Source of the DNA: Shigella phage SHSML-45
Sequence record: KX130863
Direction: 5' to 3' (one strand)
DNA length: 64,000 nt
Of the stretch, positions 15,098-38,994 are shown piece by piece. The notes beneath the pieces were generated by a model that saw nothing but the letters and a program-made list of their open reading frames with translations, searched no databases and had not been told where the DNA came from. Position 1 is the first letter of the stretch. Each line of letters starts with the position of its first letter. The translations under genes and the position numbers were made by a program.

Positions 15098-15128
15098 GAA
15101 GCTCTCCTTATCGGCTGAAAAGCCTGTA

Positions 15129-16505: not shown

Positions 16506-16522
16506 TTTTAAATAATTCTCCG

Positions 16523-17155: not shown

Positions 17156-17158
17156 TTA

Positions 17159-21938: not shown

Positions 21939-21948
21939 ATTTCCTCCT

Positions 21949-23706
21949 TTAGGTAAGGCGTTGAACTGTTACTCTTAGTCTAGGCAGGAAAACTGCACTA
22001 CCTAAACTCACGTGCATAACTACCCCTAGCTCTACATTTCCATTTCCCAGGTTTTTAACGGTGTATATAAAACTATTCCTGCTTAGAGCATTATTAGGGG
22101 TGTATCTAAAAGCTGCTGTAGTATGAAAAGGTACTAGGTAGCCCACAGGTAGCGTTAGAATCTGGTGGAATATTGCATCTCCATTACCATAACTATGCGC
22201 TTTTCTTCCTTGTACTTGAAACACCCTATCATTCCATGTATTAGCAGGAACACCTGCACAGTTAAGGTTACCGGATATAACTTCAGTAGTAAGAATAACT
22301 GTAGCATTACCGCCAGGGATACCTAACCCAATAGTTGATAAACCAACATACCTGTCGCCAGTTCCGGGATAGTAAGGAGTAATATCATCTCCCATATAAG
22401 AACTACCCACATTTCCACCAAAAAGTCGTAGTGGAACTGCTGAGGGTCCCCAAACAACTCCATGCTCATTACCAATAGTATTATCGTTAGAGTTTACATA
22501 CCACTGTTTACCTACTCCGAACTTATAAATGCTAATCTGTGATTTAGCTCCTCCATAATCTACAGGAGACCACAATCCTCCATTACTAGACCCTACAAGT
22601 TCACATCTTGCCGTGGTATCACCAAAAACTCCAGTATACGCTGCGTTATTTCCGATGAATTCCATATCTGGCCTATAGCCTAAGTTACCAAAAGCATTCT
22701 GGTTAATAAACTTATACCCGGTATTAGGGAGACTCACCCCTTTAATTATGAAATTAGAAGGAGATATAAGAATATCAGAACCAGTAAAGGGGTTGCCGGA
22801 AATACTCATACCACCATTCGAGTACCTTAAATTAAGAACATACCAAATAACCTTAGTAGGAGTTATATTATACCAATCCTGTATTACTGTAGGGTTGCCA
22901 GACTGATTGGCCAGATTAGTAGTAGACCCTCTACAAACAAATCTGTTCCCGCCGTCGTGGTACATAGTATTTACATTGCCTGGGAGCCCTTGTCTAACCC
23001 CACCATATCCACGTATATTAGAATTGCAGACATAAAACCAATCATGCCCTCTATGCGCTGCTCCTAGAGGCGACATCCATCCAGGATCCCAATAGTACGG
23101 GTTATTCCCATCTACAGGTACTGTGCTACTGTTAGTAGGAAACCCTAATTGTGCAAAAGCTTCTGCAACAGTAACACCTACAGGAGCTCCCGCACCAGGC
23201 CTAACTATACCATGGTAGGTACTATGTAACGTAGTACCACCTGTGCCACTCCTAGAGATAGATTCTTCGTGCCCTATCGAGGGGTTATAATTATAAGTTC
23301 CAGATGCGAGGCTGTTACCAAATGCAAATCCACTGGTTTGAGAAACACTAGCAAAAGATCTAAAGGGACCTGCTTGAGTAGCAACTATAGTTTGACCAAC
23401 TTTACTCTGAGTACCATTAAGAAAAGCCCTATGAGTACCATTAATCTCAATAGCAGTTAGTATAACTCTACCTGGGTCGTTGGATTTAATATTTATTATG
23501 TCAGAGGGCATCTGACAGACAAAAAACCCATTCCCGGCATCCCCTAATCCTGCCTCATAAGTACCATCAACTAGAACAAATGGCATATCACTATGAAAAA
23601 TACTATTATTATTTGGACTATAGTGACGATTAATGTCACCCCCAGATTCAGTATTTAAAGATAGTACGGTCTTACCATCGCTATATTTTCCAGCGAAAAA
23701 ACCCAT
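21949..23706 (-). CDS. receptor-binding protein pb5-like (585 aa)
   Basis: Gly/Asn/Thr-rich beta-type protein encoded divergently from a lipoprotein gene, the arrangement of T5 oad/llp; 585 aa (T5 pb5 is longer, suggesting a different receptor class). Confidence 0.65.
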
Positions 23707-23731
23707 ATAATCTCCTATTATAAAAATGTAT

Positions 23732-23760
23732 TTGCTTTCATCCCTCTATTTTGCTATAAT
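23732..23760 (+). promoter_or_regulatory. sigma70-type promoter for the Llp-like gene
   Basis: TTGCTT (23732-23737), 17-nt spacer, TATAAT (23755-23760), AT-rich upstream; GGAGAG RBS before ATG at 23792. Confidence 0.65.
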
Positions 23761-23791
23761 AAATTCATAAATTAGAAATGGAGAGATAAAT

Positions 23792-24058
23792 ATGAAAAAG
23801 TTTGTAATTGCACTAGTTGCCGCAGTTATGTTATCTGGTTGTGCACCTGCTCCCAAACCATTTTGTACTGGATTTGTAAAATCTTTTGGAGGTGCCGGAG
23901 AAGAACATTACGGCCTCAAGGTTCAAAAAGTTCGTATTAAGGGAGATCGCTTTCCAGTAGTACAGCTCCGTACTAAGTTTGGGTGGTGGGATCTCAGTCA
24001 GTTTGACCTTAAATACGGTGATTGTAAATTTAAACTAGAGCAATCTAATTACTTGTAA
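23792..24058 (+). CDS. llp: lipoprotein Llp-like (lytic conversion / receptor-blocking), 88 aa
   Basis: Signal peptide plus lipobox (VMLSGC) at the N-terminus; encoded divergently beside the receptor-binding protein gene. Confidence 0.65.
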   Translation: MKKFVIALVAAVMLSGCAPAPKPFCTGFVKSFGGAGEEHYGLKVQKVRIKGDRFPVVQLRTKFGWWDLSQFDLKYGDCKFKLEQSNYL

Positions 24059-24235
24059 TTAGTATAAAGCAAAAAGACATCCAAGTAAACTAAATTTTTT
24101 ATTTCTTGGACGGTATACTGGCAGAAAACACTACATAAGAAAAGTAGAAGTCCTTCTAGGAGTTCACAGGCACGGTTGGTTATGCCCAAATTATAAAATA
24201 TTTTAAAATACCACATTTATAGGAGCATGAAAGAT

Positions 24236-24364
24236 ATGTCAAACAAAAGAAAGAGCAGACGTGGAGAAGTGTACGATAGCTGGATTAATAGCTTTGGATT
24301 CGGAACTATCCTATTCTTTATTTTCGTAGGTTTTTGGTTAGCAGCTATGGCGGGGTGGATTTAA
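24236..24364 (+). CDS. small membrane protein (42 aa)
   Basis: AGGAG RBS before ATG; basic N-terminus then hydrophobic helix (GTILFFIFVGFWLAAMAGWI); below the ORF-track size cutoff. Confidence 0.45.
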   Translation: MSNKRKSRRGEVYDSWINSFGFGTILFFIFVGFWLAAMAGWI

Positions 24365-24471
24365 TGGAATGGGTAATTATTGCATTACTAGGGATTGTGA
24401 TTATCGGGCAATGTATTTTAGATATTCACTTAGCTAGAATTGAAACTTTATTACTGGAGAAGCGTAAATGA
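24364..24471 (+). CDS. small membrane protein (35 aa)
   Basis: ATG overlaps the preceding stop (TAATG); hydrophobic N-terminus MEWVIIALLGIVIIG. Confidence 0.4.
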   Translation: MEWVIIALLGIVIIGQCILDIHLARIETLLLEKRK

Positions 24472-24662
24472 TGGAAGTAGTAGCTACATTAATAGTATTA
24501 GTAGTTTGGGCAGCTTTCATTATTTCTTACACCGCGTATGTTCGCCTAAAAACTCTAGAAGCTCAGGTAAAACAGCAACAATTTGCTATAGAAAAAGTAG
24601 TAGAACTGCAACGTTGTGATAGTACCCGTATTCTGCAAATTGAGAGGGAATTAGATGTTTAG
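24468..24662 (+). CDS. small membrane protein (64 aa)
   Basis: ATGA start/stop overlap with the upstream ORF; one predicted TM helix then charged tail. Confidence 0.5.
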   Translation: MMEVVATLIVLVVWAAFIISYTAYVRLKTLEAQVKQQQFAIEKVVELQRCDSTRILQIERELDV

Positions 24663-24900
24663 TATTATAATTGCTTTTATTATCGGGGTAATCGCGGGAG
24701 TTTTCGGAATGACTGCGGCTATTAACAAGCATCGTAAGTATACTGCGGAAGTATCGCGGGAGATTGCGGAAAGGGAGCGGAAGTTTGAAGAGAAACGTGC
24801 GGAGTTTGAGCGGGAGTGGAATGATGGTTCTCGGGCGTCGCGGAAGAGATTTCGTGAGTTTAGACCTGAACATAGGTTTGATGACCCTTCTATGCGCTAA
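24655..24900 (+). CDS. small membrane protein with Arg/Glu-rich tail (81 aa)
   Basis: Overlaps the upstream ORF; N-terminal TM helix (IIIAFIIGVIAGVFGMTAAI), highly charged C-terminus. Confidence 0.5.
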   Translation: MFSIIIAFIIGVIAGVFGMTAAINKHRKYTAEVSREIAERERKFEEKRAEFEREWNDGSRASRKRFREFRPEHRFDDPSMR

Positions 24901-24942
24901 TTGGGAAATCTCGAAATTTCATAAGATTACACATGGGGGTTC

Positions 24943-25482
24943 ATGGTGAAGAATAATCTAAATATACAGGAAATACAAGAAGTATTTGCTTATGATCCCG
25001 AAACTGGAGTTTTTACCTGGAAAAGAGGCAATCGTAAGGGTAAAGAAGCAGGTACTTTAAATAGGGGATATAGGCAGCTTAAGTATCGAGGGTTTAAAGC
25101 TTATGCACATCAAGTAGCTTTTGTTATTATGGAGAATAGATGGCCAGCGGAATGTGTAGACCACATAGATAGGAATAAACTAAATAATAGATGGTCAAAT
25201 TTAAGAGAGGCTTCAATTACAGAGAATAATCATAATGGCAGAATCTCAAGAGCATCATCAGGCTATCTAAATGTTACATGGCATAAAGAACTTCAGAAGT
25301 GGATGGTAAGATTACATGATAAACAGGGGCTGATAAGGGGTACTACTAAGTACTTTCCCTATAGCGGATTAGAAGATGCCGTAAATTATGCAAATTTACT
25401 AAGAAGGACATTTCATGGTGACTTTGCAATACAGGAGATGTTCAAAGGAAGTATACCAGACGTTGCCCAATTAAACAGTTAA
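24943..25482 (+). CDS. HNH homing endonuclease (179 aa)
   Basis: Motif AHQVAFVIMENRWPAECVDHIDRNKLNNRWSNLREAS typical of phage HNH homing endonucleases; paralogs throughout the window. Confidence 0.75.
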   Translation: MVKNNLNIQEIQEVFAYDPETGVFTWKRGNRKGKEAGTLNRGYRQLKYRGFKAYAHQVAFVIMENRWPAECVDHIDRNKLNNRWSNLREASITENNHNGRISRASSGYLNVTWHKELQKWMVRLHDKQGLIRGTTKYFPYSGLEDAVNYANLLRRTFHGDFAIQEMFKGSIPDVAQLNS

Positions 25483-25529
25483 TTAGCGCTAAAATGACTT
25501 TTGCCAAATTCTTTGGATTACGTACGCGT

Positions 25530-25550
25530 GGGTGGGTGCAGTGGGTTGGG
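25530..25550 (+). other. G-quadruplex-type motif
   Basis: Four GGG tracts with short loops (GGGTGGGTGCAGTGGGTTGGG) in an intergenic region. Confidence 0.4.
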
Positions 25551-25603
25551 CGAAAATACTTAGTCTGCTAACCGCCACCCCCGTTACTATTACCATGCTA
25601 ACT

Positions 25604-25640
25604 GTTTCATCCTGCAACCATTTTAATTGCAGGATGAAAC
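25604..25640. terminator. perfect 14-bp stem hairpin between convergent genes
   Basis: GTTTCATCCTGCAA...TTGCAGGATGAAAC followed on the plus strand by a T-rich stretch; lies between the plus-strand HNH gene and the minus-strand dmp-like gene. Confidence 0.5.
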
Positions 25641-25657
25641 TATTTCAACTTTAATTA

Positions 25658-26392
25658 TTACGCGACTTTTAGTTTCTCAATATATTGTTGCGGGCTGCAA
25701 CTATATTCTGCGCGTTCTTCCTCGGTCATACTTTCCCAACATAATTGCAGGCGGTCGGCTAGGAATTGATAATCATTATCATCGTCGAGCGATTCATCAA
25801 TAAAGGTTTCACCTATCAATGTAACCCCAATCGATAGAATATCGTTAATAGCTTGCGCGTCCAGCGTTTTAAATCCGTATGACGCCGCCGCTGATAGCAC
25901 GCCTTTATGATCATCAATCATCGTAAAATCAGCGTTTGGATATAGCTGTTTAAATAATTCAAAATAATAAGATTTATATACCGCGTCCTTACTGTGGTAT
26001 ATCTCGCTAACTTTATCAGCCTCAAAATATTTGTGTAGTGTATCACGGGAAAACACGCGGATATTACTATCACCACGACCGCGCAACCCTTGTTTACGCA
26101 AATAATAATAGTCCGACTTGCTCATTAGTCGAGCGGTGCAAATAATGTTTAAAGTATTTGCGTCATTCATGCACTGGCGCATATATGTAACAAGGGGCAA
26201 TAGTGTATCTTGCATTATTAAATCATGTTTGCAGGCTTCATTTTTATACTTATTTAAATCTAAATTGCCCTCGCTATCAAAGCAAGGCGCTACACGATGA
26301 AACGAATTAACGATAGTGCCGTCCAGATCCCAGATCATGACGCGGGAAATATGCGGGAAATTACGGGTAATATTCGTTTTAACTTGATTCAT
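25658..26392 (-). CDS. dmp: 5-prime-deoxyribonucleotidase Dmp-like (HAD superfamily), 244 aa
   Basis: N-terminal HAD motif IWDLDGT; 244 aa as T5 Dmp; adjacent to the A1-like gene. Confidence 0.6.
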   Translation of the reverse strand: MNQVKTNITRNFPHISRVMIWDLDGTIVNSFHRVAPCFDSEGNLDLNKYKNEACKHDLIMQDTLLPLVTYMRQCMNDANTLNIICTARLMSKSDYYYLRKQGLRGRGDSNIRVFSRDTLHKYFEADKVSEIYHSKDAVYKSYYFELFKQLYPNADFTMIDDHKGVLSAAASYGFKTLDAQAINDILSIGVTLIGETFIDESLDDDNDYQFLADRLQLCWESMTEEERAEYSCSPQQYIEKLKVA

Positions 26393-26420
26393 TTTATTAC
26401 GTTCTCCATTTGAGGGATTA

Positions 26421-26454
26421 GATTAATTCAGCATTACCCGCTAGTAAATAGCGG
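26421..26454. promoter_or_regulatory. conserved palindromic motif upstream of the dmp-like gene
   Basis: CATTACCCGCTAGTAAATAGCGGGTAATAATAAA with an 8-bp inverted repeat; related copy at 30323-30352. Confidence 0.5.
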
Positions 26455-26472
26455 GTAATAATAAATTAACTA

Positions 26473-26865
26473 TTAAAGGCCATACGCAAGCGCGTCAGCG
26501 ATAAAACTAACATCCTCACCTGATACATAGGAACGAATACCCGCACAAGTATATACTTTTGCACTCATCAATTGATCATCTAGGCAAGCGGGGCAAGGCG
26601 CAACCACTGCGAAAGCTAAACCGGATTTTACCGCGTCGATGATAGTCGTTTCTTGTTTCATCGTGTCAACATAAACGCCTGCGGCCTTAATGTAACTACT
26701 TGCGCGGCCTTGCGTATAGGCGAAAGTAGTGATCTGTAAAGCGTCGTTAAATTCGATTAAATCATCGACAACATGCCCCGCCTCGACGTGATAACGTTCG
26801 CCATTAGAATAAACCAGAACAATAGAAGATTGAGCGCGGTCAAATGGAATATTTTGCTTTTTCAT
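26473..26865 (-). CDS. hypothetical pre-early protein (130 aa)
   Basis: ORF with RBS, GC-richer codon usage like neighbours; no recognisable motif. Confidence 0.45.
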   Translation of the reverse strand: MKKQNIPFDRAQSSIVLVYSNGERYHVEAGHVVDDLIEFNDALQITTFAYTQGRASSYIKAAGVYVDTMKQETTIIDAVKSGLAFAVVAPCPACLDDQLMSAKVYTCAGIRSYVSGEDVSFIADALAYGL

Positions 26866-26886
26866 ATTTATATAACTCCAATTAGT

Positions 26887-27396
26887 TTAATAAGGGATAT
26901 TAAATTCTTTACACTTTGATTTAACCCATTCTAAAAGAATAGATAAATCATAATTGCCTTTTGAAACATATTTATTTGTTATAGGGTTTTTAATTTTTGC
27001 CCTGTAATATTCTCCCGCTATGGGATCAACTTTATCAAGATAAATATATTTCGGTAGTTTATTACGCCTTTTATAATCACTCTTATTTGTCATATTAACA
27101 GCATGAGTAACTAGGCGTAAATTATTTATATCGTTGTTAACGGGGTAAGAAATTATTTTATGATCTATATCTAAATCAGGGTTAATTTCTTTATTAAATA
27201 AAACCCAAATTAAACGATGAGCTTTATATAATTCACCATTAATCATTACATCATAATAGCCTGTCTGATTTAATGTTCCCGCTACACTTCCAGCTTTCAC
27301 ACCGGGCTTACTTATTTTCCATCGTAAAAATGATGGGCTAGATTCATCATAATAAACATTCTCGTTAACTTCATTAAAATCTATTTCTTTTGCCAT
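26887..27396 (-). CDS. HNH homing endonuclease (169 aa)
   Basis: Motif YKAHRLIWVLFNKEINPDLDIDHKI...NLRLVTHAVN shared with other HNH paralogs. Confidence 0.7.
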   Translation of the reverse strand: MAKEIDFNEVNENVYYDESSPSFLRWKISKPGVKAGSVAGTLNQTGYYDVMINGELYKAHRLIWVLFNKEINPDLDIDHKIISYPVNNDINNLRLVTHAVNMTNKSDYKRRNKLPKYIYLDKVDPIAGEYYRAKIKNPITNKYVSKGNYDLSILLEWVKSKCKEFNIPY

Positions 27397-27466
27397 TTAT
27401 AATCCTCCAATTAATATTGTCTCACTAATTGGAGGATTTAGGCAAATAAGATTTTAATTTATTGGC

Positions 27467-29134
27467 TTACTGTACAAAAAATTTACCGTTTTTAAAGTCA
27501 ATCAAAGTGCGCTGACCGTTTGCATAGGTAATAATATGCGTTTGCGTCCAGCTTGACGCGCCAACGTTGTAGCCCATATCAAGCGACCCCGCCACGCCAG
27601 CGGTATAAACGCCGCCGTAAATGCTAGCCGTATGAGTATGACCAGTGTTAAGGCGTCCCAACTTTTTAAACTGCTTAGGATTGCCCCGACTGCCGTTAAT
27701 GCCATTGTGACCGTGTACGCCGCATTCAATGCCAGCGATTTTAAATGATTGGTCTGTCGTCAGGAAAATAGCGTTAAATTCGCAACCTGCGACACTACGC
27801 AAGGCGTAATCTAGAACGTTAAAGGTATCATCCTTTTCAGCAATAGCGGCGTAAATCGCGGCATTTAGACGGTGATACAATTCCGCGTTTGCGGGATCGT
27901 CTTTAATGTTTGCGTTACGATCATCTAGCCAGCGTGAAAGAGCTAAATCGTGATTCGATTCAACAATAATTGTCTGCGAAAAATCGCGTTCCATTGACTC
28001 CAGCACGCGTCCAGTATCGATAAGATCATCCAGAACTTTATCACGTCCGGCGGCGTACTGTTTAGCAAGGAATACACCACTTGCGCGGTTATGATGATTG
28101 CGCGATGTAAAATCATGCACATCATGAATAAACTGATATTTCGGTTTAAGAATATCAAGCAAGCTGTTTTCACTAGCCCATGACGCAGCGGCGCAATCAT
28201 CATCTAATTTTTCGGCGTGAATATCGCCATATTGCAAGCCTAGAACATGATCGGATGTTTCAAAACATCCGGTAGGCATAGCGCAAACATTCAAATCGTA
28301 GAACATGCCGCTTTCGTCCATTGTTTCAAGCTGGCGGCAATAAAATTCTCCGTCGTCGTCAAATTCTACTAGCAAAGCGCCGAAATTATGTAAAGCCTCG
28401 GCCTTTTGCCCTGCTTTCTGCTGAATGTAGTTTTTAAGCGTAGCCGTTCCGGTTGAGTACATACGGCGCACTACTTCACCTTTTAACGCTGGCACACTTT
28501 CAGCGGTGATTTTAGCATGACCGATTGCCAGACCTTCAATATTTAAAGCCGTGGCGGTTTCTGCGAATCCTGAAAGCGGATAATCTGCCGTTGGTAAAAC
28601 GTTAATTTCAGCCATGAAAGCAAAGCGGCGATTATTCAGGAAAACATTTTTATCGCAAATATATTTATCGAAAGCTGAATCATATTTGATTCCTTCGCTA
28701 CCTTCGCCGTTTTGGAATCCATTTTTATTATAAATGAATTTACTAACCAGCAATTCAGCACCGATATATTCAGCGAATTTTTCCAGACTTGCTAAAAAGT
28801 TTTTATGCGGGAAAGTATTATTTTGAATCGACGTTAGAATAAAACGGCGACCGGATTTAACTTCCCATTGTTCGACGGTACTAGAAACAATCCCCGCCGC
28901 TTCGGGGCGATCATCATTTTTAATCGCCTTTTCAGCTTTTGCCGCTTTCGGTTTCGCTGGCTTATTTGCTTCCAACCAGTCACAAATTGCGGTCGAATGT
29001 TTCGGCGTATCATAAACAGCTTTTGAAATATCGTCGCAAACTTCCAATTTAGTAGCGCGTAAACGCTTACCGTAGAAGTTAAAATCTGCGGCCATTTTCA
29101 AAATTTGAGCTTGTTTTTCTGCGGAAATAACCAT
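27467..29134 (-). CDS. A1: A1-like pre-early protein, metallophosphoesterase-type (555 aa)
   Basis: 555 aa (T5 A1 is about this size); C-terminal His-rich metal-binding motifs (GHNGINGSRGNP...GHTHTASIYGG); sits between dmp-like and A2-sized genes. Confidence 0.6.
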   Translation of the reverse strand: MVISAEKQAQILKMAADFNFYGKRLRATKLEVCDDISKAVYDTPKHSTAICDWLEANKPAKPKAAKAEKAIKNDDRPEAAGIVSSTVEQWEVKSGRRFILTSIQNNTFPHKNFLASLEKFAEYIGAELLVSKFIYNKNGFQNGEGSEGIKYDSAFDKYICDKNVFLNNRRFAFMAEINVLPTADYPLSGFAETATALNIEGLAIGHAKITAESVPALKGEVVRRMYSTGTATLKNYIQQKAGQKAEALHNFGALLVEFDDDGEFYCRQLETMDESGMFYDLNVCAMPTGCFETSDHVLGLQYGDIHAEKLDDDCAAASWASENSLLDILKPKYQFIHDVHDFTSRNHHNRASGVFLAKQYAAGRDKVLDDLIDTGRVLESMERDFSQTIIVESNHDLALSRWLDDRNANIKDDPANAELYHRLNAAIYAAIAEKDDTFNVLDYALRSVAGCEFNAIFLTTDQSFKIAGIECGVHGHNGINGSRGNPKQFKKLGRLNTGHTHTASIYGGVYTAGVAGSLDMGYNVGASSWTQTHIITYANGQRTLIDFKNGKFFVQ

Positions 29135-29230
29135 GATAATAAAACTCCGTTAAAGGGATTAAAAACTTTTGTTATTGGCAATATTGCCAGATATAACGCC
29201 TTGAATAATAGGCGTTATAATTTGCAACAT

Positions 29231-29428
29231 TTAACTAATCGGCATTAGGCTAGAACTAACACCACAAGCAACGGCGGCAATAAAACAAAGTAAGCCCAAA
29301 CGCTTAGCTAATTTAGATTTACGTTTAAAATAATATGAATCTAAATCATTTTGAAAATAAGCGAACAATAATGAGGCCGCCATAATAAATAAGCCTAGAA
29401 TTAAAGATTCAGTAGGAAAGAAAATCAT
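29231..29428 (-). CDS. small membrane protein (65 aa)
   Basis: Two hydrophobic helices flanking a basic loop (KRKSKLAKR). Confidence 0.4.
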   Translation of the reverse strand: MIFFPTESLILGLFIMAASLLFAYFQNDLDSYYFKRKSKLAKRLGLLCFIAAVACGVSSSLMPIS

Positions 29429-29517
29429 TTTTAAAACTCCTGATTTAAGGGAAGAAAATAACTATCGCTAAACAGTTATATTATTGCCCTCCCACTAGGA
29501 AGGGCAAGGTATAACTA

Positions 29518-29934
29518 TTATTCACCTGCGGCTTGTTTTACTTCATCGGCAACGCCTAACAGTTGCGCCACGGCGTCCAGTGTTTCCAATTTTGCACTTT
29601 CCAGTGATGCCAGATCGTCAACGTCTTTGATAATGCCTGAATCGATGGCATGTTTTGCAATAACACGCACATAATGCGCTTTACGGATGGAACTACCACC
29701 GCCAACTTTACGCGGCTTATCGCTTTTCTGATACGCTTTCGCGCTGGTCAATTTTGAGCGAACAGACACGGGGGAGGCCGCGCCAACTGTTTTCGCAATT
29801 TCTTTCAGGCCGTCGCTGTTGGCGAACTCTAATCCGTTTTCATTAATTAGCTGTTGATACATGGTAACAGCCTGCTGGGTGTTTTCTTCATTCCAAGCAA
29901 ATTTTGCGGTTTTTTCGGTTTTAACGTTAGCCAT
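29518..29934 (-). CDS. A2-like pre-early protein (138 aa)
   Basis: Size and position immediately upstream of the A1-like gene match T5 A2; basic central region. Weak assignment. Confidence 0.4.
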   Translation of the reverse strand: MANVKTEKTAKFAWNEENTQQAVTMYQQLINENGLEFANSDGLKEIAKTVGAASPVSVRSKLTSAKAYQKSDKPRKVGGGSSIRKAHYVRVIAKHAIDSGIIKDVDDLASLESAKLETLDAVAQLLGVADEVKQAAGE

Positions 29935-30035
29935 GATTGTAACTCCTATCGATTTAATTTAAGGGATAAGATTAACATAATGTTAATCGTTATATACCCC
30001 GAACTACTGGGGTATATAAAAGTAACACTATAAAC

Positions 30036-30287
30036 TTATGCTACAGCTTCCCATTTTTCATTGCGCTGGGCAACCTTTACAACGTCGCCGGATTTAACCC
30101 GAACGTTATAAACGGTTTTCCCGTTGTTACTCCGTTCCGTTTCAGCGTATACCGCATCAATTACATCAAACGGCATAAGCGCCGCGCCTTTAATGCGCTC
30201 GGCCTTTCCGGTTAATTCGTCCGTTTTAGTAACGAAAGGAATAAAAACGGATTGACCAATTTTTGGCGCATTAGTAACGTTTTTCAT
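30036..30287 (-). CDS. hypothetical protein (83 aa)
   Basis: ORF preceded by a conserved palindromic upstream motif also found before the dmp-like gene. Confidence 0.45.
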   Translation of the reverse strand: MKNVTNAPKIGQSVFIPFVTKTDELTGKAERIKGAALMPFDVIDAVYAETERSNNGKTVYNVRVKSGDVVKVAQRNEKWEAVA

Positions 30288-30322
30288 GGTATAAACTCCA
30301 ATTTATTCAGTGGATTGTTCCG

Positions 30323-30352
30323 CATTACCTGCTAGAAAGTAACAGGTAATAA
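30323..30352. promoter_or_regulatory. conserved palindromic motif upstream of ORF 30036-30287
   Basis: CATTACCTGCTAGAAAGTAACAGGTAATAA, same architecture as the copy at 26421-26454. Confidence 0.5.
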
Positions 30353-30485
30353 GAAAAAATCCGCTCGCCAATATAATCAATTTAAAGAACTCCACTCAGG
30401 CCGCTATATCCCAGTTAGGGGGCGGGACACATTATGGTAAGTGCCGACCGTCAAATTTTATCAAGTTATCGCTCTTATCGAACTG

Positions 30486-30509
30486 GGTACATCTTAAAGC
30501 CTATCGGCT
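30486..30509. repeat. 24-bp inverted repeat, left copy
   Basis: GGTACATCTTAAAGCCTATCGGC matches the reverse complement of 30752-30775 with one mismatch. Confidence 0.65.
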
Positions 30510-30515
30510 AGGGTG

Positions 30516-30719
30516 TCAAACAGTTTTTTGCAGTTTTTTATGATTTTCTTTCAGGTCAATCATAATATTGCGCCAGATCATTTCTAAACCTTGCTGGCGG
30601 CCTTTCTTGTACTGCGCAAATCGGTATTTTACGGATTGCTGGGCTATTGTCAACAATTTTTTTGTTTCGCTATCTAGTGCCTTGCTAGGCTTGCCAGTTA
30701 TTAAAAGCGTTTGTTTCAT
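30516..30719 (-). CDS. small basic protein (67 aa), possibly DNA-binding
   Basis: Lys/Arg/Gln-rich; bracketed exactly by a 24-bp inverted repeat pair. Confidence 0.4.
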   Translation of the reverse strand: MKQTLLITGKPSKALDSETKKLLTIAQQSVKYRFAQYKKGRQQGLEMIWRNIMIDLKENHKKLQKTV

Positions 30720-30751
30720 ATCGTCGATTCCTTATAATATATAAGTTTACC

Positions 30752-30775
30752 GCCGATAGGCTTTAAGATATACCC
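30752..30775. repeat. 24-bp inverted repeat, right copy
   Basis: GCCGATAGGCTTTAAGATATACC; partner of 30486-30509; lies in the upstream region of ORF 30516-30719. Confidence 0.65.
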
Positions 30776-30896
30776 AATTTTTAAAGAGCGTGGCGGTAAA
30801 CTTCCCGCCGTGTAGTTCGTCATTGCCGCCCTACGAGATAAATAATAGCAAATACCAAAAATGGCGCAACCTTATTTTTGTAAAGAAACGTAAGTT

Positions 30897-31238
30897 TTAC
30901 GCCTTTCTATAGTCCCCCTTATTTTGGTTGTTTTCGGCTTGAGTTACTAACCGTAAGTTATCAATAAAATTATTACTAGGGTTACGATCAATATGATCAA
31001 TTACTAGTTTGCTATCTATTTTATAGTTAAATAATAACCACACAATACGATGCGCTAGGTAACGCTCTTTATTGAGCTGTACAGACCAATAGCCATCCTT
31101 TCTTTTAGTGCCTGCTACCCCATGAAAGGCGCAACCGGGGCGGGATACTTTCCACCGTAGGCAACTGGGACTAGTTTCATCATAGTAAAGATTATCTAGC
31201 ACGGTTTCTAAATCAATATCTTTTGTTAACTCAATCAT
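30897..31238 (-). CDS. HNH homing endonuclease (113 aa)
   Basis: Motif AHRIVWLLFNYKIDSKLVIDHIDRNPSNNFIDNLRLVTQAEN. Confidence 0.7.
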   Translation of the reverse strand: MIELTKDIDLETVLDNLYYDETSPSCLRWKVSRPGCAFHGVAGTKRKDGYWSVQLNKERYLAHRIVWLLFNYKIDSKLVIDHIDRNPSNNFIDNLRLVTQAENNQNKGDYRKA

Positions 31239-31573
31239 TAATATTCTCCTATTAGTTTCATTTGGTTATTATATTATACCAAAATTATTAGCAATGTGGC
31301 TAATACAGTTTCACCGGACGCCGTCCAGCTATTGCCTAAGTTTAAAGGAAACGGGCGCGCGAATACCACAAAACAAAGCAGATAGGCAAGTAATTTTTTC
31401 ATATATATTTGCTTTGCCCTACTTGACAAAATCTAAAAAGCTCGTGGTAGCGATAAACGGCTTATCACCTTATGATGGGATGGCTAAAAACTTCATCGCG
31501 TTCTAGGGCGTTTTAGGCGCATTCTAGCCTTGTTGATAACTTATCCCCAGAAGCAAAAATGAAATTTTCCTAG

Positions 31574-31616
31574 TTATCCACTTGACTTTTATTTTCCAGT
31601 GGATAACTACTTATTT
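31574..31616. promoter_or_regulatory. inverted pair of DnaA-box-like sites
   Basis: TTATCCACT at 31574-31582 and its complement AGTGGATAA at 31608-31616; one mismatch to the TTATCCACA consensus. Confidence 0.5.
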
Positions 31617-31835
31617 TATGAAATAAATTAATTGACTTTTGTTTGTTAGTATGTATTGAGAGAATAGTAGGCTTATAATTGCTAGGATGATAATAATGCT
31701 GGTGGATTGTAACAGCCTGAACTATTAGCAGACTACTAATCCCGTAAAATCTCATTAGCCAACTAACTATTACATAATATATAATATATACATAAATTAA
31801 TAAGAAATAATAACGATAAGAAACTATCGGCCTAA

Positions 31836-31965
31836 GTGAGAAACACTATCATTTAAGTTATCCACAAGTTTATTAACAGCACTTTTTGACTTGACACGAT
31901 AGGCGGCGATATAAGGACTTTTACACAGACTTATCCACAGGTTATCCTACTGTATAAATATACAG
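31836..31965. repeat. left arm of ~130-bp imperfect inverted repeat, containing two DnaA boxes
   Basis: TTATCCACA at 31858-31866 and 31931-31939; reverse complement of 35225-35354 matches with few mismatches over the outer ~60 bp and inner ~42 bp. Confidence 0.7.
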
Positions 31966-32231
31966 GGTAAAAAGGTAGTGTTAACAACTGCAATCAATTT
32001 TAAGCGGCCTAAATCGCATTCTAACGAGCAAAACGCTGTAGGGTAATATTAAAGTAAAGCCTTCACCAGTCGCCCTGGTGGCTCCGCCGTGTTTTGCTCT
32101 TTACTATACCGCTGCGCAGTTAGCATAAAACTAGGCGTTAGGCAAGGAAAATAAAAAGGTAAAATAAACGTTGCCCCTAGAAAGAAAATACCTTTATCAT
32201 TCTCCTACCGATTAACGAGGGAGGCCAACAA

Positions 32232-33218
32232 ATGAGGCTATATAAACCAGATAACGCAACCGTCTTAAAAGGTGCATTGCGCAACCTGCTGGACGGTAGC
32301 AGAACAACCAGCATTAAACACTTTGTTAACAAGGCCGAAGATATTCACCAAAATTTTTTTGATGATTTCGATGCCTATGATATGAGTAGTTTTTTGCAAC
32401 TGTATAAGCAGGGGGCAACGATTATCTTGTATAATCGGGATAATCACCTGCTTACTAGCAGGGGGCCGGATACCGATTTCATAATTGTAAAAGGTAGCAC
32501 AGTAAAAGCCTATGATACTGGGGCGGGCTTAGAAGTTTTTTCAATAGAAAACTATGAAGCCAACCCCAATGATCTTTATGACGTTGAAAACTTTCTTGAT
32601 TCATTTTGGCGTTATTTATCCGTTGGCTGGAATCGGTCAATTGGTGACGGGTATCGTCTGGCGGCTGTAATGGCTTTTGATGATAACGGTAATTTTTTGC
32701 TACCGCCGGAATTATATGATCGTGTATATGAAGGCGATATTGTTGACGCCGGATTCTCTTTCGAAAGAGAAGAAAGTATTGGCAATATAGAAAAACATGC
32801 TGTAAATTCTAACACTCAAAGCGTTAATACTCAAATCACTGAAAATAAAGGAAAAAACACCATGACCAAGATCGCTAATATTGTTGCCGCTAATAAATCC
32901 GCTGTTGTAAACGCTGCAAAACTGGAAGCGGGTAAAATTGCACTGACTCAAATTACGAAAGTAGCGGCGAAAAAAGCACCGTTTATGATTAAAGGTTATA
33001 TTGATACACCTATCGGTCGAGTAGTGATTGCCAACCTGCTGAGCGTAGCGGTTGACCAGTACGCCCCAAGTAACCAAAAGGCGAAAGCGGTAGCAGGGGC
33101 AGCTATGGAAGCGGCAATGCTGGAAATGGTGCAAAGTTTTAACATCGCTGAAATGATTGATGAAATGGTGAAAGGTATTGATATTTCTACTTTTACCACT
33201 AGCACCGAAAGCGAGTAA
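32232..33218 (+). CDS. hypothetical protein (328 aa)
   Basis: Long plus-strand ORF inside the inverted-repeat-bracketed segment; Ala/Lys-rich helical C-terminal third; no recognised motif. Confidence 0.55.
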   Translation: MRLYKPDNATVLKGALRNLLDGSRTTSIKHFVNKAEDIHQNFFDDFDAYDMSSFLQLYKQGATIILYNRDNHLLTSRGPDTDFIIVKGSTVKAYDTGAGLEVFSIENYEANPNDLYDVENFLDSFWRYLSVGWNRSIGDGYRLAAVMAFDDNGNFLLPPELYDRVYEGDIVDAGFSFEREESIGNIEKHAVNSNTQSVNTQITENKGKNTMTKIANIVAANKSAVVNAAKLEAGKIALTQITKVAAKKAPFMIKGYIDTPIGRVVIANLLSVAVDQYAPSNQKAKAVAGAAMEAAMLEMVQSFNIAEMIDEMVKGIDISTFTTSTESE

Positions 33219-33283
33219 TAATATTAAGCGGGGATTGTTACCCCGCTTTACTATTCCCTTGTTAACTAATAGGAGGCTAATAA

Positions 33284-33778
33284 ATGGCTGCGGAAAAATA
33301 TGGCTTCTCACTGGGAGAAGTGAGCACGGCAAAACATGATATGATCATTTTGGTCGATTGTCATACTGGCTATTGCGGAGAAGGCTGGACGGAGGAACAT
33401 TTTGTTCCCGCTGGCTGTGATCTGGACGCTTTCGCAAACGAACACGCATATGATAATGCTTCTCGTTTCGGTAGTGATGGGGAAGAAGATGAAGAAACAG
33501 GGGAATGGATTGAAAATGATAATGTATACGCGAGTCTTTATCATTATCAATTGAGTAAGTCCGGTACTTATGTAAATGGTGGCGATCCTATTAATACCGT
33601 TATGAAACTAATTATTAAACACGGTGGCGCGGAAATAATTGGTAACAAGGCGTTATTATATGCAAATCGATTAAAACAGCTTGTTTATATTCCTGATAAT
33701 TCCCGTTGGGATGAATATGCCGTTTTACAGAAAGAACTAAAACGCTGTTTCGGCGTGGAAACATTAGAAATAGTCTAA
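33284..33778 (+). CDS. hypothetical protein (164 aa)
   Basis: ORF with AGGAGG RBS 8 nt upstream; acidic central stretch (DGEEDEETGEW). Confidence 0.55.
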   Translation: MAAEKYGFSLGEVSTAKHDMIILVDCHTGYCGEGWTEEHFVPAGCDLDAFANEHAYDNASRFGSDGEEDEETGEWIENDNVYASLYHYQLSKSGTYVNGGDPINTVMKLIIKHGGAEIIGNKALLYANRLKQLVYIPDNSRWDEYAVLQKELKRCFGVETLEIV

Positions 33779-34037
33779 TGTAAAGTTTTGTAAAGGTCGC
33801 CTATTATGGCGGCCTTTTTTGTTATAATGCCTTTACACCGAAACGGTGGACTGAAAATTTTCCCTGATTTCTAGGAGGCGTTAAAATGGTTATTTTTCGA
33901 TCTATTCTGGCTAGTATCTTGGGCGCTATTTTATCACTGTTTGCAATAGCTTTCGGAGTTCACGTGGTTATTATTGGAGCAGGTATCGCGGGGTTTTCTT
34001 ACTTGTTAGGCTGTATGACTGGTAAAGGGGAATAAAA

Positions 34038-34250
34038 ATGTTAAAGAATGTTTCCCTTGCCCGTTCCAAAGGTTTTAAGCTGGTGGATGTTAACACGTTC
34101 GAGCGTCCAGATTGTAAAATCGAATATGTAGCACGCAACAAAAACGCTTTCCGTGTTACAGAAAAGAAATTTGACAAGCGCGGCAATTTGGTAGCCGAAA
34201 CGGTTAAACACTTTGCCACCTTTTACGCTGCATTTCGTGGGGTATTATGA
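34038..34250 (+). CDS. hypothetical protein (70 aa)
   Basis: ORF start-coupled to an upstream small hydrophobic ORF (33887-34035). Confidence 0.4.
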   Translation: MLKNVSLARSKGFKLVDVNTFERPDCKIEYVARNKNAFRVTEKKFDKRGNLVAETVKHFATFYAAFRGVL

Positions 34251-34365
34251 TAGCGCAAATTAAAACAGCGTTTCGTTTCTGGGGAGTGATCCTCAGCGTA
34301 TGTTTTGGCATAGTTATTATTAGCCAGCTAATGATCATTGTTGCAATCGCAGGGGAAATGCTATC

Positions 34366-34710
34366 ATGGTAATTTATGAGGGCAATCGTTTTGTTACTAA
34401 TTGCCGTCCGGCATTATTAGCAAACTATTTAAACCAGCTTTCACCAGTTTATAAAGGCGTGGTTAATATCTATGAAGGCAAAGCACATTATAAAATTTCT
34501 GCCGTTGTCACCCGTGAACTAGCGTTTCAATTTTTAACTTTTGGGTCTTGTGACGTTCAGGTTATGGGGGAAGCGTTAATAGCAGAAAATGAAAATGAAT
34601 TTACTGACATTTTCCGCAAAGTATGTACGGAGCGCCTGATTATGAAAGGCGCATATATTCAATCCACTGCTGAAAGTATTGAAACAGCATTTCGAAAAAT
34701 TGCACAATGA
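34366..34710 (+). CDS. hypothetical protein (114 aa)
   Basis: ORF overlapping the stop of an upstream small hydrophobic ORF. Confidence 0.45.
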   Translation: MVIYEGNRFVTNCRPALLANYLNQLSPVYKGVVNIYEGKAHYKISAVVTRELAFQFLTFGSCDVQVMGEALIAENENEFTDIFRKVCTERLIMKGAYIQSTAESIETAFRKIAQ

Positions 34711-34837
34711 ATAGCTGGTGGCGAAAAACACAAAGCCATAAATCTAATAATACCGCTGGGAAGCATTCCCAGCGTTTACGATTTGGTAATGGCTTCACAA
34801 TGATATTGATAATCATTCTCATTCTAGGAGCAATGGC

Positions 34838-35077
34838 ATGGCTGTAAGAATTTTACGATATGTAGAACGTAAAGAAACCGATATTATGCAACATCATTTA
34901 ACTGATGGGCAATACGCGCAATTTTTAGAAATGCAGAAAAGCGGAGCTGATACAGCAACGCTAGGAGCGTGGATCAACTCAGTTTCAACGTGTACGCATT
35001 TTGATTCATACGGGTATACGCCAGCCGAAACCGTCCAGATCTTTGACGACTACGAGAAAGAATACATAACAGACTAA
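34838..35077 (+). CDS. hypothetical protein (79 aa)
   Basis: ORF with GGAG RBS; last gene before the right inverted-repeat arm. Confidence 0.45.
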   Translation: MAVRILRYVERKETDIMQHHLTDGQYAQFLEMQKSGADTATLGAWINSVSTCTHFDSYGYTPAETVQIFDDYEKEYITD

Positions 35078-35224
35078 TAATAACGGGGCGCAACTATCGG
35101 CCCCGCTTTTTCTGGCCTTCCTCAAATTTCCCCTTATTAAAGTACCTCCTCCAAAATTAAAACGCTTAGAATGCGTTTGAGAGCGTTTTAGACCTATATT
35201 AGAGTTATTCACTACGTAGGAATA

Positions 35225-35354
35225 CTGTATAAATATACAGTAGGATAACCTGTGGATAAGTCTGTTGAAAACGCCTCAAAATCGCTAGGGTTTTGTCAAG
35301 TCAAATCGTGCTGTTAATAAACCTGTGGATAACTTAAATAACAGTGTTTCTCAC
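35225..35354. repeat. right arm of ~130-bp imperfect inverted repeat, containing two DnaA boxes
   Basis: TGTGGATAA at 35251-35259 and 35325-35333; inverted partner of 31836-31965. Confidence 0.7.
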
Positions 35355-35510
35355 TTCCCTTTCTAAATGCGAATCATTCTCAGTATGTGACTCATTCGTA
35401 TTCAACTCTGTAAATGATAACCGTTCTCATTCCCCTTTCTAAACGCGAATCATTATCATTCGCATTCAACTTCTCAAATGCGAATCAATCTCATTATCAT
35501 TCGCATTCAG
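35345..35510. repeat. imperfect tandem direct repeats
   Basis: Recurring units CCCTTTCTAAA(T/C)GCGAATCATT and TCATTCGCATTCA read directly in the sequence. Confidence 0.6.
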
Positions 35511-35515
35511 GCGAG

Positions 35516-35531
35516 CAGGGCAATTGCCCTG
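35516..35531. repeat. perfect 16-bp palindrome CAGGGCAATTGCCCTG
   Basis: Self-complementary sequence immediately before the first GTGCAAATCCGA copy. Confidence 0.7.
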
Positions 35532-35566
35532 CGCTTTTGTGCAAATCCGACATTTGCCCCCATGGA

Positions 35567-36106
35567 TTACGCGTGGGCGTGTATGTGCAAATCCGACCCA
35601 TTTTTGGTAGTGTGCAAATCCGACCCTAAAATTTCATCCCTCCATTTTACTAGAAATTCTAGATCATATGAACACTTAGACTGAGTACCATTACTAGTAG
35701 GAACATAAGCCCGGTAATAATCACCCTTTGAGGTAGTTCTAGCAACACGAATATATTTTGGAAGATTGGTTGTTTTACTGTTGGTATTTTTGCGATTTCT
35801 AGCATTTTTATAGTCTGGTATTTGTCTTAGATTCTCAGGAGAATTATTAGTGGGATCCTGATCTATATGATCTACCTGCAACTCGGGATCAATACTGCCG
35901 TTATGCAGGCAGAAAACAATCCGAGAAACTGCTAGGGTTCCCACCCCAGATACAAAGACCACATAAGACTTCCTACCTTTTCCGTCGTCCCTTAAAGTGC
36001 CTGTATGTTTTCTTTTAGGTAATCTACTCAGCCCACTGGGACTTGATGGGTCAATAAAAAATAAGTCTTTCATTTGTGCATATTCGATAGGTATATATCT
36101 TGACAT
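35567..36106 (-). CDS. HNH homing endonuclease (about 179 aa from internal start)
   Basis: Motif LAVSRIVFCLHNGSIDPELQVDHIDQDPTNNSPENLR; GGAGG RBS before ATG at 36106; the track ORF extends to 36160. Confidence 0.65.
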   Translation of the reverse strand: MSRYIPIEYAQMKDLFFIDPSSPSGLSRLPKRKHTGTLRDDGKGRKSYVVFVSGVGTLAVSRIVFCLHNGSIDPELQVDHIDQDPTNNSPENLRQIPDYKNARNRKNTNSKTTNLPKYIRVARTTSKGDYYRAYVPTSNGTQSKCSYDLEFLVKWRDEILGSDLHTTKNGSDLHIHAHA

Positions 36107-36180
36107 AATAAAATTCCTCCTATGAAGTAATATTATAACAAAATTTTCGAAAGTGTGCAAGTGAAATTTTTATATTTGAA

Positions 36181-36207
36181 AATAACCGCCCTCCCTATAA
36201 CCGCCCT
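36181..36207 (+). repeat. direct repeat AATAAC(C/T)GCCCTCCCTATAACCGCCCT, copy 1
   Basis: Near-identical 27-bp sequence recurs at 36706-36732; each copy is followed by a GTGCAAATCCGA motif. Confidence 0.65.
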
Positions 36208-36705
36208 ATTCGAATCCTGTGGGATATGTGCAAATCCGACACGGTTTTTCTAGGATTAAGATGTGCGAATCCAATGAAATTTTTGTGACTTCGATGAGAG
36301 GGTGTGTGATTGTGTGAGTTTGGGGAGAAGTTGAGAGAGCGAGAGAAATTTAGAGGCTAGAAGGATGTGGGCGCAGGATTGGTGCGGAGCACCTGATTTG
36401 CGGGGATTTTGGGGAAGAGTTGAGATAATTTGGGAAGATTTGAGATAGGTGCAGAAAAAGTAAAATTTTATTAGCAAAATGGGGCAAAATAGCTTGACAA
36501 GTGGAAATTCTTGTGGATCTAAAAACTCAGGCAATCATGGGCCTTCGGCCCGAAATAATGCTGCTATTTTCGGGAGATTATATGTTCCTAAAAACTTAGG
36601 CATTTGTGCAAATCCGACCAGTTTTTAAACTCCTGTCAGTGTGCAAATCCGATAGCAATTTCCAGAAATGTGTTTTGGAAAAATGTCTTCTAGAAATAAC
36701 TGCCC

Positions 36706-36732
36706 TCCCTATAACCGCCCTGTATAGAAAAC
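36706..36732 (+). repeat. direct repeat AATAAC(C/T)GCCCTCCCTATAACCGCCCT, copy 2
   Basis: Matches 36181-36207 with one mismatch. Confidence 0.65.
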
Positions 36733-37234
36733 CGGCCTAAGATATGTGACGTTGGTGAGAAACTGCCCTAGAATGCGTGCAAATCCGATGAATATTTTTG
36801 TGTGATCTCTAGAATTTGTGCTTATCAATTTCCTAGAAACTTAGGAGTCTAGAAGAAAGTGTTGTGCCATCCTAGCAGATGAGCGGCAACCGGTGTATCA
36901 TCTTGAACGTTAATTTATCTATTCAACAGTATTAGTTTTTATATAAGTATAAGATCCCCAGGGTTCTCATATAGAGCTTTGCCCCCACCAGAAGGTCTCG
37001 TGATGTTTCTAGTAATCTTTATTAAATTACCTGTTGACTTGTCCTGTCGCTCCGTAACCTACGCTACAAGTCAGTAATTTAAGATTCCTGAACCACCACA
37101 CCTTCTGTGTGGCAACTCTAAATGGTTAATTCTATTAACTCATAGAGTTATGATAACATACATTTAGCTATCTGTCAACGAGAGTTTGTATTTGAGTCTC
37201 GGTACAGGTATTGTGCACCGAGACATGCAGAGTA

Positions 37235-38119: not shown

Positions 38120-38198
38120 TATTATCTCCCGTTTTTAAGGTCTGGATGACCTTCTTTTTATTTTAGAGCCTCCGTAGAGGCTCATATATTAGGAATTA

Positions 38199-38810: not shown

Positions 38811-38994
38811 TATTTATTCTCCAGTTTGTCTAACAGTTTATGGGCTGCTAGGTTATATTGCTCAAGTTCACGATTAAGGATTTGGTTTTCACACTTTAGC
38901 TCTAGATTCTTATTATTAAGAATATTGCAGATCAGTAGAAGTGCTAATATAACTAGCAAGGAACCTACAAGTATTAAAAGAAAAAGAGTTTCCA

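Follow-up and report, generated by a model that had tools for sequence, protein, structure and literature searches.

Host-like codon usage in the pre-early genes of the Shigella phage SHSML-45 terminal repeat and its possible link to the timing of phage tRNA entry

The DNA analysed here, 64,000 nucleotides of Shigella phage SHSML-45 (KX130863; hereafter the window), is that of a T5-like phage approximately 97% identical to Salmonella phage Shivani (KP143763). At 25,537-36,519 it contains what is almost certainly the T5-type long direct terminal repeat of a Shivani-like Tequintavirus in one collapsed copy, and the pre-early genes of this repeat, including dmp, A1 and A2, are set apart from the rest of the window by a host-like choice of synonymous codons. 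Positions 25,000-35,500 were matched by 544 phage records, with Salmonella phages vB_SLGBLB0002 (97.8%) and Shivani (97.3%) at the top, and the annotations under these matches were A1, A2, dmp and “terminal repeat”. Local alignment to the annotated loci paired the left repeat of Shivani (1-11,123) with window 25,537-36,519. It is preceded without a break by unique right-end DNA (Shivani 108,918-108,975, window 25,479-25,536) and followed by unique left-end (early) DNA (Shivani 11,124-16,000, window 36,520-41,396; 99.7% identity, gap-free). Since the repeat is joined to right-end and left-end unique DNA on its two sides, the window appears to carry one collapsed copy, and no second copy was found within the 64 kb. 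In T5-type virions, the repeat is present at both genome ends, the left copy being the first-step-transfer DNA which enters the cell alone, and in T5 both A1 and A2 are needed before the remaining genome follows (two-step injection). The T5 record annotates its own repeat as first-step-transfer DNA. By homology with T5 and BF23, two-step injection dependent on A1 and A2 would be expected in SHSML-45; homology, not reads, is likewise the basis for predicting the duplication of the repeat and its exact termini. As the repeat appears once and in mid-sequence, the virion genome would be about 11 kb longer and would start near 25,535-25,537.

Both edges of the repeat match mapped or annotated repeat ends of characterized relatives. 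On the left side, position 1 of T5, SP15, GEC_vB_N7 and HASG4 falls on window position 25,535, the left ends of Bf23 and DT57C on 25,536, that of Shivani on 25,537 and that of AKFV33 on 25,538, while the last base of the GEC_vB_N3, N5 and N7 records corresponds to 25,534. A preliminary description of this DNA had expected the terminus of a T5-type genome, or the edge of its repeat, near 25,530-25,550, which agrees with the positions predicted from these homologous ends. On the right side, T5 position 10,219, Bf23 position 9,743 and Shivani position 11,123 share one column of a gap-free four-way alignment (97% conserved), equivalent to window 36,519; the Bf23 repeats had been called with PhageTerm. 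The same description had ended its block of interest at 35,100, short of this boundary.

Within the repeat (Table 1), the operon running leftward comprises dmp, A1, A2 and small genes; a central non-coding region, from which, by analogy, both operons may be driven, separates it from a rightward operon. The homologues of dmp, A1 and A2 lie in this order and leftward at the left end, so that pre-early-like genes are indeed found where they had been described. The dmp, A1, A2, 130-aa (amino acid) and 164-aa proteins were not recognized by Pfam, and they were identified by their near-identity to genes annotated in Shivani and T5. An Rfam scan of 24,000-38,000 returned no match. Promoter-like sites were counted only where they coincide with a promoter annotated in T5, the scan being mildly enriched overall (promoter-like sites 54 versus 37.3 +/- 6.2, terminator-like sites 18 versus 11.3 +/- 3.2); the site at 30,653-30,626 (TTGACA N16 TAAAAT) coincides with T5 promoter P-H22. 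Three HNH homing endonuclease genes are also located in the repeat. The first of them (26,887-27,396) is absent at that place in T5, whose alignment breaks at 26,910-27,475.

Table 1. Features of the terminal repeat, its boundaries and the phage tRNA genes in the window (GC3, GC content at third codon positions; ORF, open reading frame).
Feature	Position	Strand	Basis
G-run (G-quadruplex-type) motif GGGTGGGTGCAGTGGGTTGGG, straddling the predicted terminus	25,530-25,550	+	Sequence read directly
Predicted left genome terminus (terminase cut site), resolved to ~3 nt	25,535-25,537	+	Homology to relatives' ends
T5-type long direct terminal repeat, almost certainly a single collapsed copy, 10,983 bp	25,537-36,519		Shivani alignment and boundary alignments
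dmp (deoxynucleoside-5'-monophosphatase), pre-early	25,658-26,392	-	Matches Shivani CPT_Shivani1/155 and T5.001
T5.002-like pre-early gene, 130 aa, 44.5% GC	26,473-26,865	-	Shivani/T5 annotation
HNH homing endonuclease, AT-rich insertion (28.4% GC, GC3 0.19)	26,887-27,396	-	Pfam HNH_3
A1 (DNA transfer / host DNA degradation protein), pre-early, 43.3% GC	27,467-29,134	-	100% identical to Shivani A1
T5.005-like small protein, 65 aa	29,231-29,428	-	Shivani/T5 annotation
A2 (DNA-binding protein needed for second-step transfer), 46.8% GC, GC-richest gene of the window	29,518-29,934	-	Shivani/T5 annotation
T5.007-like pre-early gene	30,036-30,287	-	Shivani/T5 annotation
T5.008-like pre-early gene	30,516-30,719	-	Shivani/T5 annotation
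HNH homing endonuclease, dividing Repeat Region 1 of Davison from Repeat Region 2	30,897-31,238	-	Pfam HNH_3, E = 6.5e-17; Davison text
IRC-spacer-IRD inverted-repeat arm with DnaA boxes	31,834-32,026		Matches description in bioRxiv 10.1101/866236
DUF7566 protein, T5.011-like, first of the rightward pre-early operon (32,232-35,077)	32,232-33,218	+	Pfam DUF7566, E = 2e-112
164-aa ORF, rightward pre-early operon	33,284-33,778	+	Shivani and T5 annotation
Small ORFs, rightward pre-early operon	34,038-34,250; 34,366-34,710; 34,838-35,077	+	Shivani and T5 annotation
IRD'-spacer-IRC' arm with DnaA boxes at 35,251 and 35,324 (-), partner of 31,834-32,026 (77% identical)	35,166-35,356		
Seven GTGCAAATCCGA copies (DRD-type repeats)	35,536-36,788		Repeat family search; Davison description
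HNH homing endonuclease inside the injection-stop repeat region	35,567-36,160	-	Pfam HNH_3; Shivani17
Right boundary of the terminal repeat, ...TTGTGGATC / TAAAAACTCAGG...	36,519-36,520		Alignment of annotated ends
Phage tRNA gene cluster, on second-step-transfer DNA outside the repeat	55,871-62,196	-	ARAGORN
tRNA-Arg(UCU), reads AGA	61,548-61,622	-	ARAGORN

The preliminary description had taken this region for a GC-richer block between AT-rich structural and early-type regions. The GC content is 39.76% at 25,500-31,000 and 39.55% at 25,500-35,100, compared with 38.36% in the whole window, 39.64% in the left flank (15,000-25,499) and 37.69% in the right flank (35,101-64,000). The block is at the 95th percentile of all 5.5-kb windows, yet its excess is just 1.4 percentage points (standard deviation 1.0). 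The GC profile, which had been named as the check that could refute the block, is therefore nearly flat, and the claim nearly fails on it. The left, structural flank is not AT-rich but indistinguishable from the block, and bulk composition differs, by approximately 2 points, from the right flank only. There is thus no real GC island at this position. What remains of the claim are single genes: of all genes called in the 64 kb, those for A2 (46.8%), the 130-aa protein (44.5%) and an 83-aa protein (44.4%) are the three richest in GC, and A1 (43.3%) ranks sixth, so that A2, A1 and two neighbours stand out at 43-47%. The block average is flattened because these genes interleave with AT-rich HNH genes (28.4% for 26,887-27,396) and long non-coding repeats; in 500-bp steps, GC inside the block ranges from 29.4% (27,001-27,500, homing endonuclease gene) to 47.2% (27,501-28,000, A1).

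A clear difference was found in codon usage. In the repeat genes, GC3 amounts to 0.360 (0.378 when the HNH genes are left out), versus 0.274 in the late genes to the left and 0.313 in the early genes to the right (Mann-Whitney, p = 0.002 and p = 0.03, respectively), while first and second codon positions show no regional difference. In the non-HNH repeat genes, AGA and AGG account for 7 of 85 arginine codons, compared with 294 of 677 in the rest of the window (8% versus 43%; Fisher p = 1.6e-11). ATA is likewise rarer among isoleucine codons (19/142 versus 250/956; p = 8e-4), as is GGA among glycine codons (18/130 versus 244/949; p = 0.003). The seven genes of the leftward operon are devoid of AGA and AGG (0/51), including dmp (0 of 12 arginine codons) and A1 (0 of 22), and A1 also lacks ATA among its 34 isoleucine codons. 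Conversely, the repeat genes use CGC, GGC, CCG, ACG and GCG at three to five times the frequency seen elsewhere. Relative synonymous codon usage (RSCU) of the repeat genes correlates with E. coli genome usage at r = 0.60, in contrast to -0.05 for late genes, -0.05 for early genes and -0.12 for HNH genes; per gene, the difference in E. coli-likeness is significant at p = 1.7e-6 (Mann-Whitney, 7 versus 52 genes of at least 100 aa). In an unsupervised principal component analysis of codon usage, the second component sets the repeat genes apart. The step is located at the boundary between first-step and second-step DNA, and there is no gradient from early to late genes.

A similar contrast was observed in other T5-like lineages. 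In Pectobacterium phage My1, which belongs to another subfamily, AGA and AGG (together AGR) comprise 15 of 120 arginine codons in pre-early genes versus 168 of 304 in early genes (p = 6e-17) and ATA 28/180 isoleucine codons in pre-early versus 133/417 in other genes; the RSCU correlation with E. coli is +0.52 versus -0.28 (per-gene p 8e-6). In Klebsiella phage vB_Kpn24-P3 (A1 75% identical in amino acids), AGR reaches 5/99 in pre-early, 81/385 in early and 17/54 in late genes, ATA 13/166, 70/413 and 22/49, and r 0.77, 0.54 and -0.09, respectively (per-gene p 0.0015). Vibrio phage Cody gives partial support, with an AGR share of 0.21 in pre-early, 0.28 in early and 0.57 in late genes and an ATA share of 0.17, 0.11 and 0.37. 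Bulk GC does not follow this pattern: the repeat is 3.3 points richer than the rest in My1 (43.0% versus 39.7%), poorer in vB_Kpn24-P3 (43.5% versus 45.2%, with GC3 equal) and almost the same in Cody (40.1% versus 39.7%). Thus, the codon contrast is the conserved feature, and the bulk-GC difference depends on the lineage. Between SHSML-45 and vB_Kpn24-P3, silent sites are near saturation (same-codon fraction 0.47-0.59 versus 0.40-0.45 expected).

One possible cause would be regional mutation, in which a repeat present in two copies gains GC by GC-biased gene conversion or by some peculiarity of replication or packaging. The whole repeat of SHSML-45 is slightly GC-richer (39.5%) than the unique segments on its left (38.7%) and right (37.6%), and My1 shows the larger difference given above, as this explanation would predict. 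However, the non-coding DNA of the repeat (37.7%) is close to that of the right unique segment (37.2%; left, 35.4%), the three HNH genes in the repeat are AT-rich and not host-like (AGR 13/27), and in vB_Kpn24-P3 the codon contrast persists although the repeat is GC-poorer than the early region. Because non-coding DNA is not enriched and the HNH genes do not share the host-like usage, the codon shift is gene-specific and synonymous, not regional. The latter observation in particular disfavours a regional mutational cause, which we consider highly improbable.

Mosaic acquisition had been suggested for the block, i.e., a pre-early module derived from a GC-richer source and still bearing the composition of this source. 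In its favour, the GC-richest genes of the window are pre-early and host-like in codon usage, and T5-like genomes recombine: the left flank is closest to GEC_vB_N3/N7 (92%), but the repeat is closest to Shivani (97%). The module is, however, not patchily distributed. It is syntenic in T5, Bf23, Shivani, My1, vB_Kpn24-P3 and Cody, the order of dmp, A1 and A2 is unchanged across subfamilies in every T5-like phage examined, and A1 relatives occur in 1,133 phage records. Further, a foreign segment should be shifted in coding and non-coding DNA and at all codon positions, but bulk GC equals that of the left flank and in the non-HNH genes GC3 alone is shifted; the pre-early genes are also still about 10 points below the GC content of the host. 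The contrast recurs between lineages whose silent sites are nearly saturated, where amelioration should have erased it in the absence of selection. This recurrence favours maintained selection over acquisition. A different origin of the module is therefore not borne out and is very unlikely.

A selective explanation is offered by the position of the tRNA genes. In the window, the tRNA cluster including tRNA-Arg(UCU) lies on second-step-transfer DNA; in My1 and vB_Kpn24-P3, too, tRNA-Arg(UCU) and the other tRNA genes (25-26) are all located outside the repeat. Codons exactly matching phage tRNAs are less frequent in pre-early than in early genes of My1 (0.32 versus 0.41, p = 5e-9) and vB_Kpn24-P3 (0.26 versus 0.33, p = 3e-5). 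Pre-early genes would have to be translated in the first minutes with the host tRNA pool alone, as the phage tRNA genes would not enter until A1 and A2 had been produced. Selection would then keep rare codons dependent on phage tRNAs out of the pre-early genes, and early and late genes, arriving together with the phage tRNAs, would be free to drift towards AT-rich codons served by these tRNAs. The sharp step at the repeat boundary fits such timing because early genes are as un-host-like as late ones. The small rise in bulk GC would be a diluted by-product of this codon selection. We infer tRNA-timing selection as the cause from the pattern of codon usage and hold its chances to be even; the explanation as a whole, a terminal repeat with a pre-early codon regime kept by tRNA-timing selection, appears rather probable to us. 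Regarding the tRNA calls themselves, the Shivani annotation contains the same nine tRNAs and none besides. At 62,123-62,196 (-), ARAGORN called a tRNA-Ser whose anticodon, ACU, is unusual; this gene has no Shivani annotation and may be a false call or a degenerate tRNA. Two tRNA genes with anticodon CAU are present at 55,871 and 59,367 (-), one of which could be an AUA-reading tRNA-Ile (lysidine type), with a bearing on the ATA contrast.

Alternatively, the pre-early genes might be under general translational selection for very high and fast expression from strong promoters, unrelated to the arrival of phage tRNAs. The pre-early promoters of T5 are very strong, and the pre-early genes avoid the rarest host codons. 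Besides, the first principal component is an AGA-versus-CGT axis which also picks out a gene resembling that of a major capsid protein. In this late gene of 458 aa (15,129-16,505, -), which probably encodes the major capsid protein, the E. coli codon adaptation index (CAI) is the highest in the window (0.65) and the score on the first component is extreme; its bias is towards optimal codons ending in T and differs in kind from that of the pre-early genes. Indeed, pre-early genes have adaptation indices of 0.24-0.44, far lower than that of the capsid-like gene and marginally above those of other genes. Pre-early genes favour GGC, CGC, CCG, GCG and ACG, which are codons of the average host genome, unlike the T-ending optimal codons used by highly expressed late genes, and the second component parts them from the latter. 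Expression selection is thus an unlikely explanation, though a less remote one than regional mutation or acquisition. Since the CAI contrast is weak, we do not claim “optimized” codons for the pre-early genes; the claim is limited to host-like usage and avoidance of rare codons.

Several observations weigh against selection by tRNA timing or limit the codon contrast on which it builds. The Sharp-Li adaptation index is barely raised in the repeat genes (0.30 versus 0.25-0.27, p = 0.02-0.10), the likeness being one to genome-average host usage, and the rightward operon is less extreme, with AGR at 4/11 in the DUF7566 gene. The test for codons matching phage tRNAs is confounded with GC3, as matching codons mostly end in A, and serine and glycine go the opposite way. 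In Cody, early genes resemble pre-early genes in AGR share and the late genes alone differ, and early genes of vB_Kpn24-P3 are fairly host-like, too. Technically, absolute r and CAI values are approximate, as are the codon table for E. coli K-12 and the Sharp-Li weights used for them, while the AGR, ATA and GC3 counts are independent of these tables. The genes of the window were called by a simple longest-ORF procedure and the host was assumed to be Salmonella or E. coli.

Should the explanation apply more widely, two-step injection would impose a hard partition of codon usage across the Demerecviridae, with first-step genes held to the host tRNA pool and later genes released from it. This generalization is tentative, and we rate it at slightly less than even. 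In that case, the codon step would be a marker, obtainable from sequence only, for the boundary between first-step and second-step DNA and for the pre-early genes in uncharacterized phages. If true, the explanation would also supply direct evidence, at the genome level, for the importance of phage tRNAs as early as the first minutes following second-step transfer. Through the step, two hallmarks of T5 are linked, the entry of DNA in stages and a large tRNA complement, and recoding could test this link. In the literature searched, no report of a pre-early codon-usage partition in T5-like phages was found, although an earlier mention is possible; a sharp codon step, which two independent lineages from enterobacteria and, in part, a Vibrio lineage also show, is an addition of some interest.

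The preliminary description had also pointed to a G-quadruplex-type motif at 25,530-25,550. The motif is present at exactly this position and straddles the predicted terminus, two of its G-tracts being in unique DNA and two forming the first bases of the repeat. It is a canonical motif of four tracts (G3+N1-7 x4) and the sole one on both strands of the window, versus 0.12 expected from first-order Markov simulations. As a G-quadruplex, it might serve as the recognition or cleavage signal of the terminase, which would be in line with its uniqueness and with the predicted cut inside it. Conservation speaks against such a role: the motif occurs in Shivani with one base different, but is absent from six of the eight relatives aligned (T5, Bf23, ESCO40, DaisyDussoix, MM-1 and SCF). 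T5, Bf23 and ESCO40 have GGTGTG(T/C)(C/T)CACTGCCTCCGG in this place and DaisyDussoix, MM-1 and SCF carry just two GGG tracts, and yet their termini are found in the same columns. Moreover, the left end of the virion would retain just two G-tracts once cut. When nine phages are aligned, either half of the motif is seen in two versions (left, GGGTGGG or GAGGTGTG; right, CAGTGGGTTGGG or CACTGCCTCCGG); four GGG tracts arise only in the combination of the window and Shivani, while all nine termini fall in the same 3-nt span. The motif is thus real and lineage-specific but no conserved feature of the terminus; a functional role as a signal is unlikely, and a G-quadruplex read by the terminase is scarcely credible.

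Some further observations were made around the termini. The two versions of the 12 nt inside the left terminus, CAGTGGGTTGGG and CACTGCCTCCGG, differ by nearly only G-to-C swaps at five positions with few intermediates (SelmaRatti), and may stem from inversion of a short segment or from a strand-symmetric constraint acting where the DNA is cut. A perfect inverted repeat of 14 bp is located at 25,604-25,640 (GTTTCATCCTGCAA N9 TTGCAGGATGAAAC), in the interval from the terminus to the end of dmp; no T-run follows it and, hence, it is no obvious intrinsic terminator. A 28-nt direct repeat, AAATAACCGCCCTCCCTATAACCGCCCT (27/28 identical), has one copy on each side of position 36,519 (36,180-36,207 and 36,694-36,721).

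The repeat-rich region with DnaA boxes noted in the preliminary description is real and extends to 36,788, past the end given for the block. All four perfect TTATCCACA sites of the 64 kb (31,858, 31,931, 35,251 and 35,324) fall in the two inverted-repeat arms; in the arm at 31,834-32,026, TTTTACACA at 31,919 and TTATCCACA at 31,931 form a pair 3 bp apart. The general DnaA consensus TTWTNCACA is not enriched across the window (9 versus 7.4 expected), and the perfect TTATCCACA sites alone cluster. The arm at 35,166-35,356 is the core of the proposed injection stop signal (iss): the iss of T5 (9,140-10,149) maps to approximately 35,000-36,450, and at its right end the repeat contains a large untranslated region with inverted repeats and paired DnaA boxes. 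The GTGCAAATCCGA array overruns the right repeat edge by about 270 bp, as in T5. For T5-like phages, Davison described the IRC-spacer-IRD and IRD'-spacer-IRC' arms, paired DnaA boxes, DRD repeats and the overrun (bioRxiv 10.1101/866236), and by sequence comparison the DnaA-box repeats of the window are this injection-stop region. Together with the repeat boundaries and the pre-early genes, they were already annotated or described in close relatives. The HNH gene at 35,567-36,160 accounts for about 575 bp not found in T5 (T5 9,847-9,908, window 35,634-36,209) and parts GTGCAAATCCGA copies 1-3 from copies 4-7. Because Shivani has the same HNH gene inserted between the copies, their spacing is evidently not critical. 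A 39-nt inverted repeat (30,470-30,508 and 30,752-30,790; 85% complementary) flanks the T5.008-like ORF and is probably IRA/IRA' of Davison's Repeat Region 1.

Next to the left terminus, an HNH homing endonuclease ORF (24,943-25,482, +; Pfam HNH_3) ends about 55 nt before the predicted cut. Shivani has a different HNH/AP2 endonuclease gene in this place, and an HNH gene also abuts the junction in ESCO40 and SelmaRatti. Of window 20,000-25,534, just 24,263-24,851 aligns to the DNA preceding the Shivani repeat, and the segment looks like a recombinant host-range module; the best relatives of the left flank as a whole are GEC_vB_N3/N5/N7, not Shivani. These flank swaps and the three HNH genes of the repeat are what recombination and the movement of homing endonucleases ordinarily produce among T5-like phages. 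The pieces that are truly mobile and odd in composition are the AT-rich HNH genes, not a GC-rich block.

Compared with known systems, the repeat is closest to that of Shivani (KP143763, 1-11,123 and 108,976-120,098), with which it shares 96-99.9% nucleotide identity throughout, the genes including all three HNH genes, the boundaries and the G-run motif. It is about 140 bp shorter and has a divergent stretch at approximately 34,252-34,363, and the receptor-binding region of the window differs from that of Shivani. With the T5 repeat (AY543070, 1-10,219) it shares the homologues of dmp, T5.002, A1, T5.005, A2, T5.007, T5.008 and T5.011 in the same order and orientation, the inverted repeats with paired DnaA boxes, the overrunning DRD-type array and both boundaries; Bf23 has the same gene order. 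Identity to T5 is 76-90%. An extra HNH gene replaces T5.003 and another is located inside the iss region, several of the small rightward ORFs have given way to others, and the terminal 20 nt are G-rich in the window but C-rich in T5. With respect to codon usage, it is an established idea for T4 and other tRNA-bearing phages that early genes are more host-like and late genes match the phage tRNAs. Bailly-Bechet and co-workers are said to have linked, in 2007, a temporal partition of codon usage to phage-encoded tRNAs. As in the T4-type partition, the genes of the window expressed before phage tRNAs can act are closer to host codon usage, and those expressed later use codons which phage tRNAs serve. 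Unlike the T4-type gradient, however, the window shows a sharp step at the DNA-entry boundary, beyond which early genes are as un-host-like as late ones.

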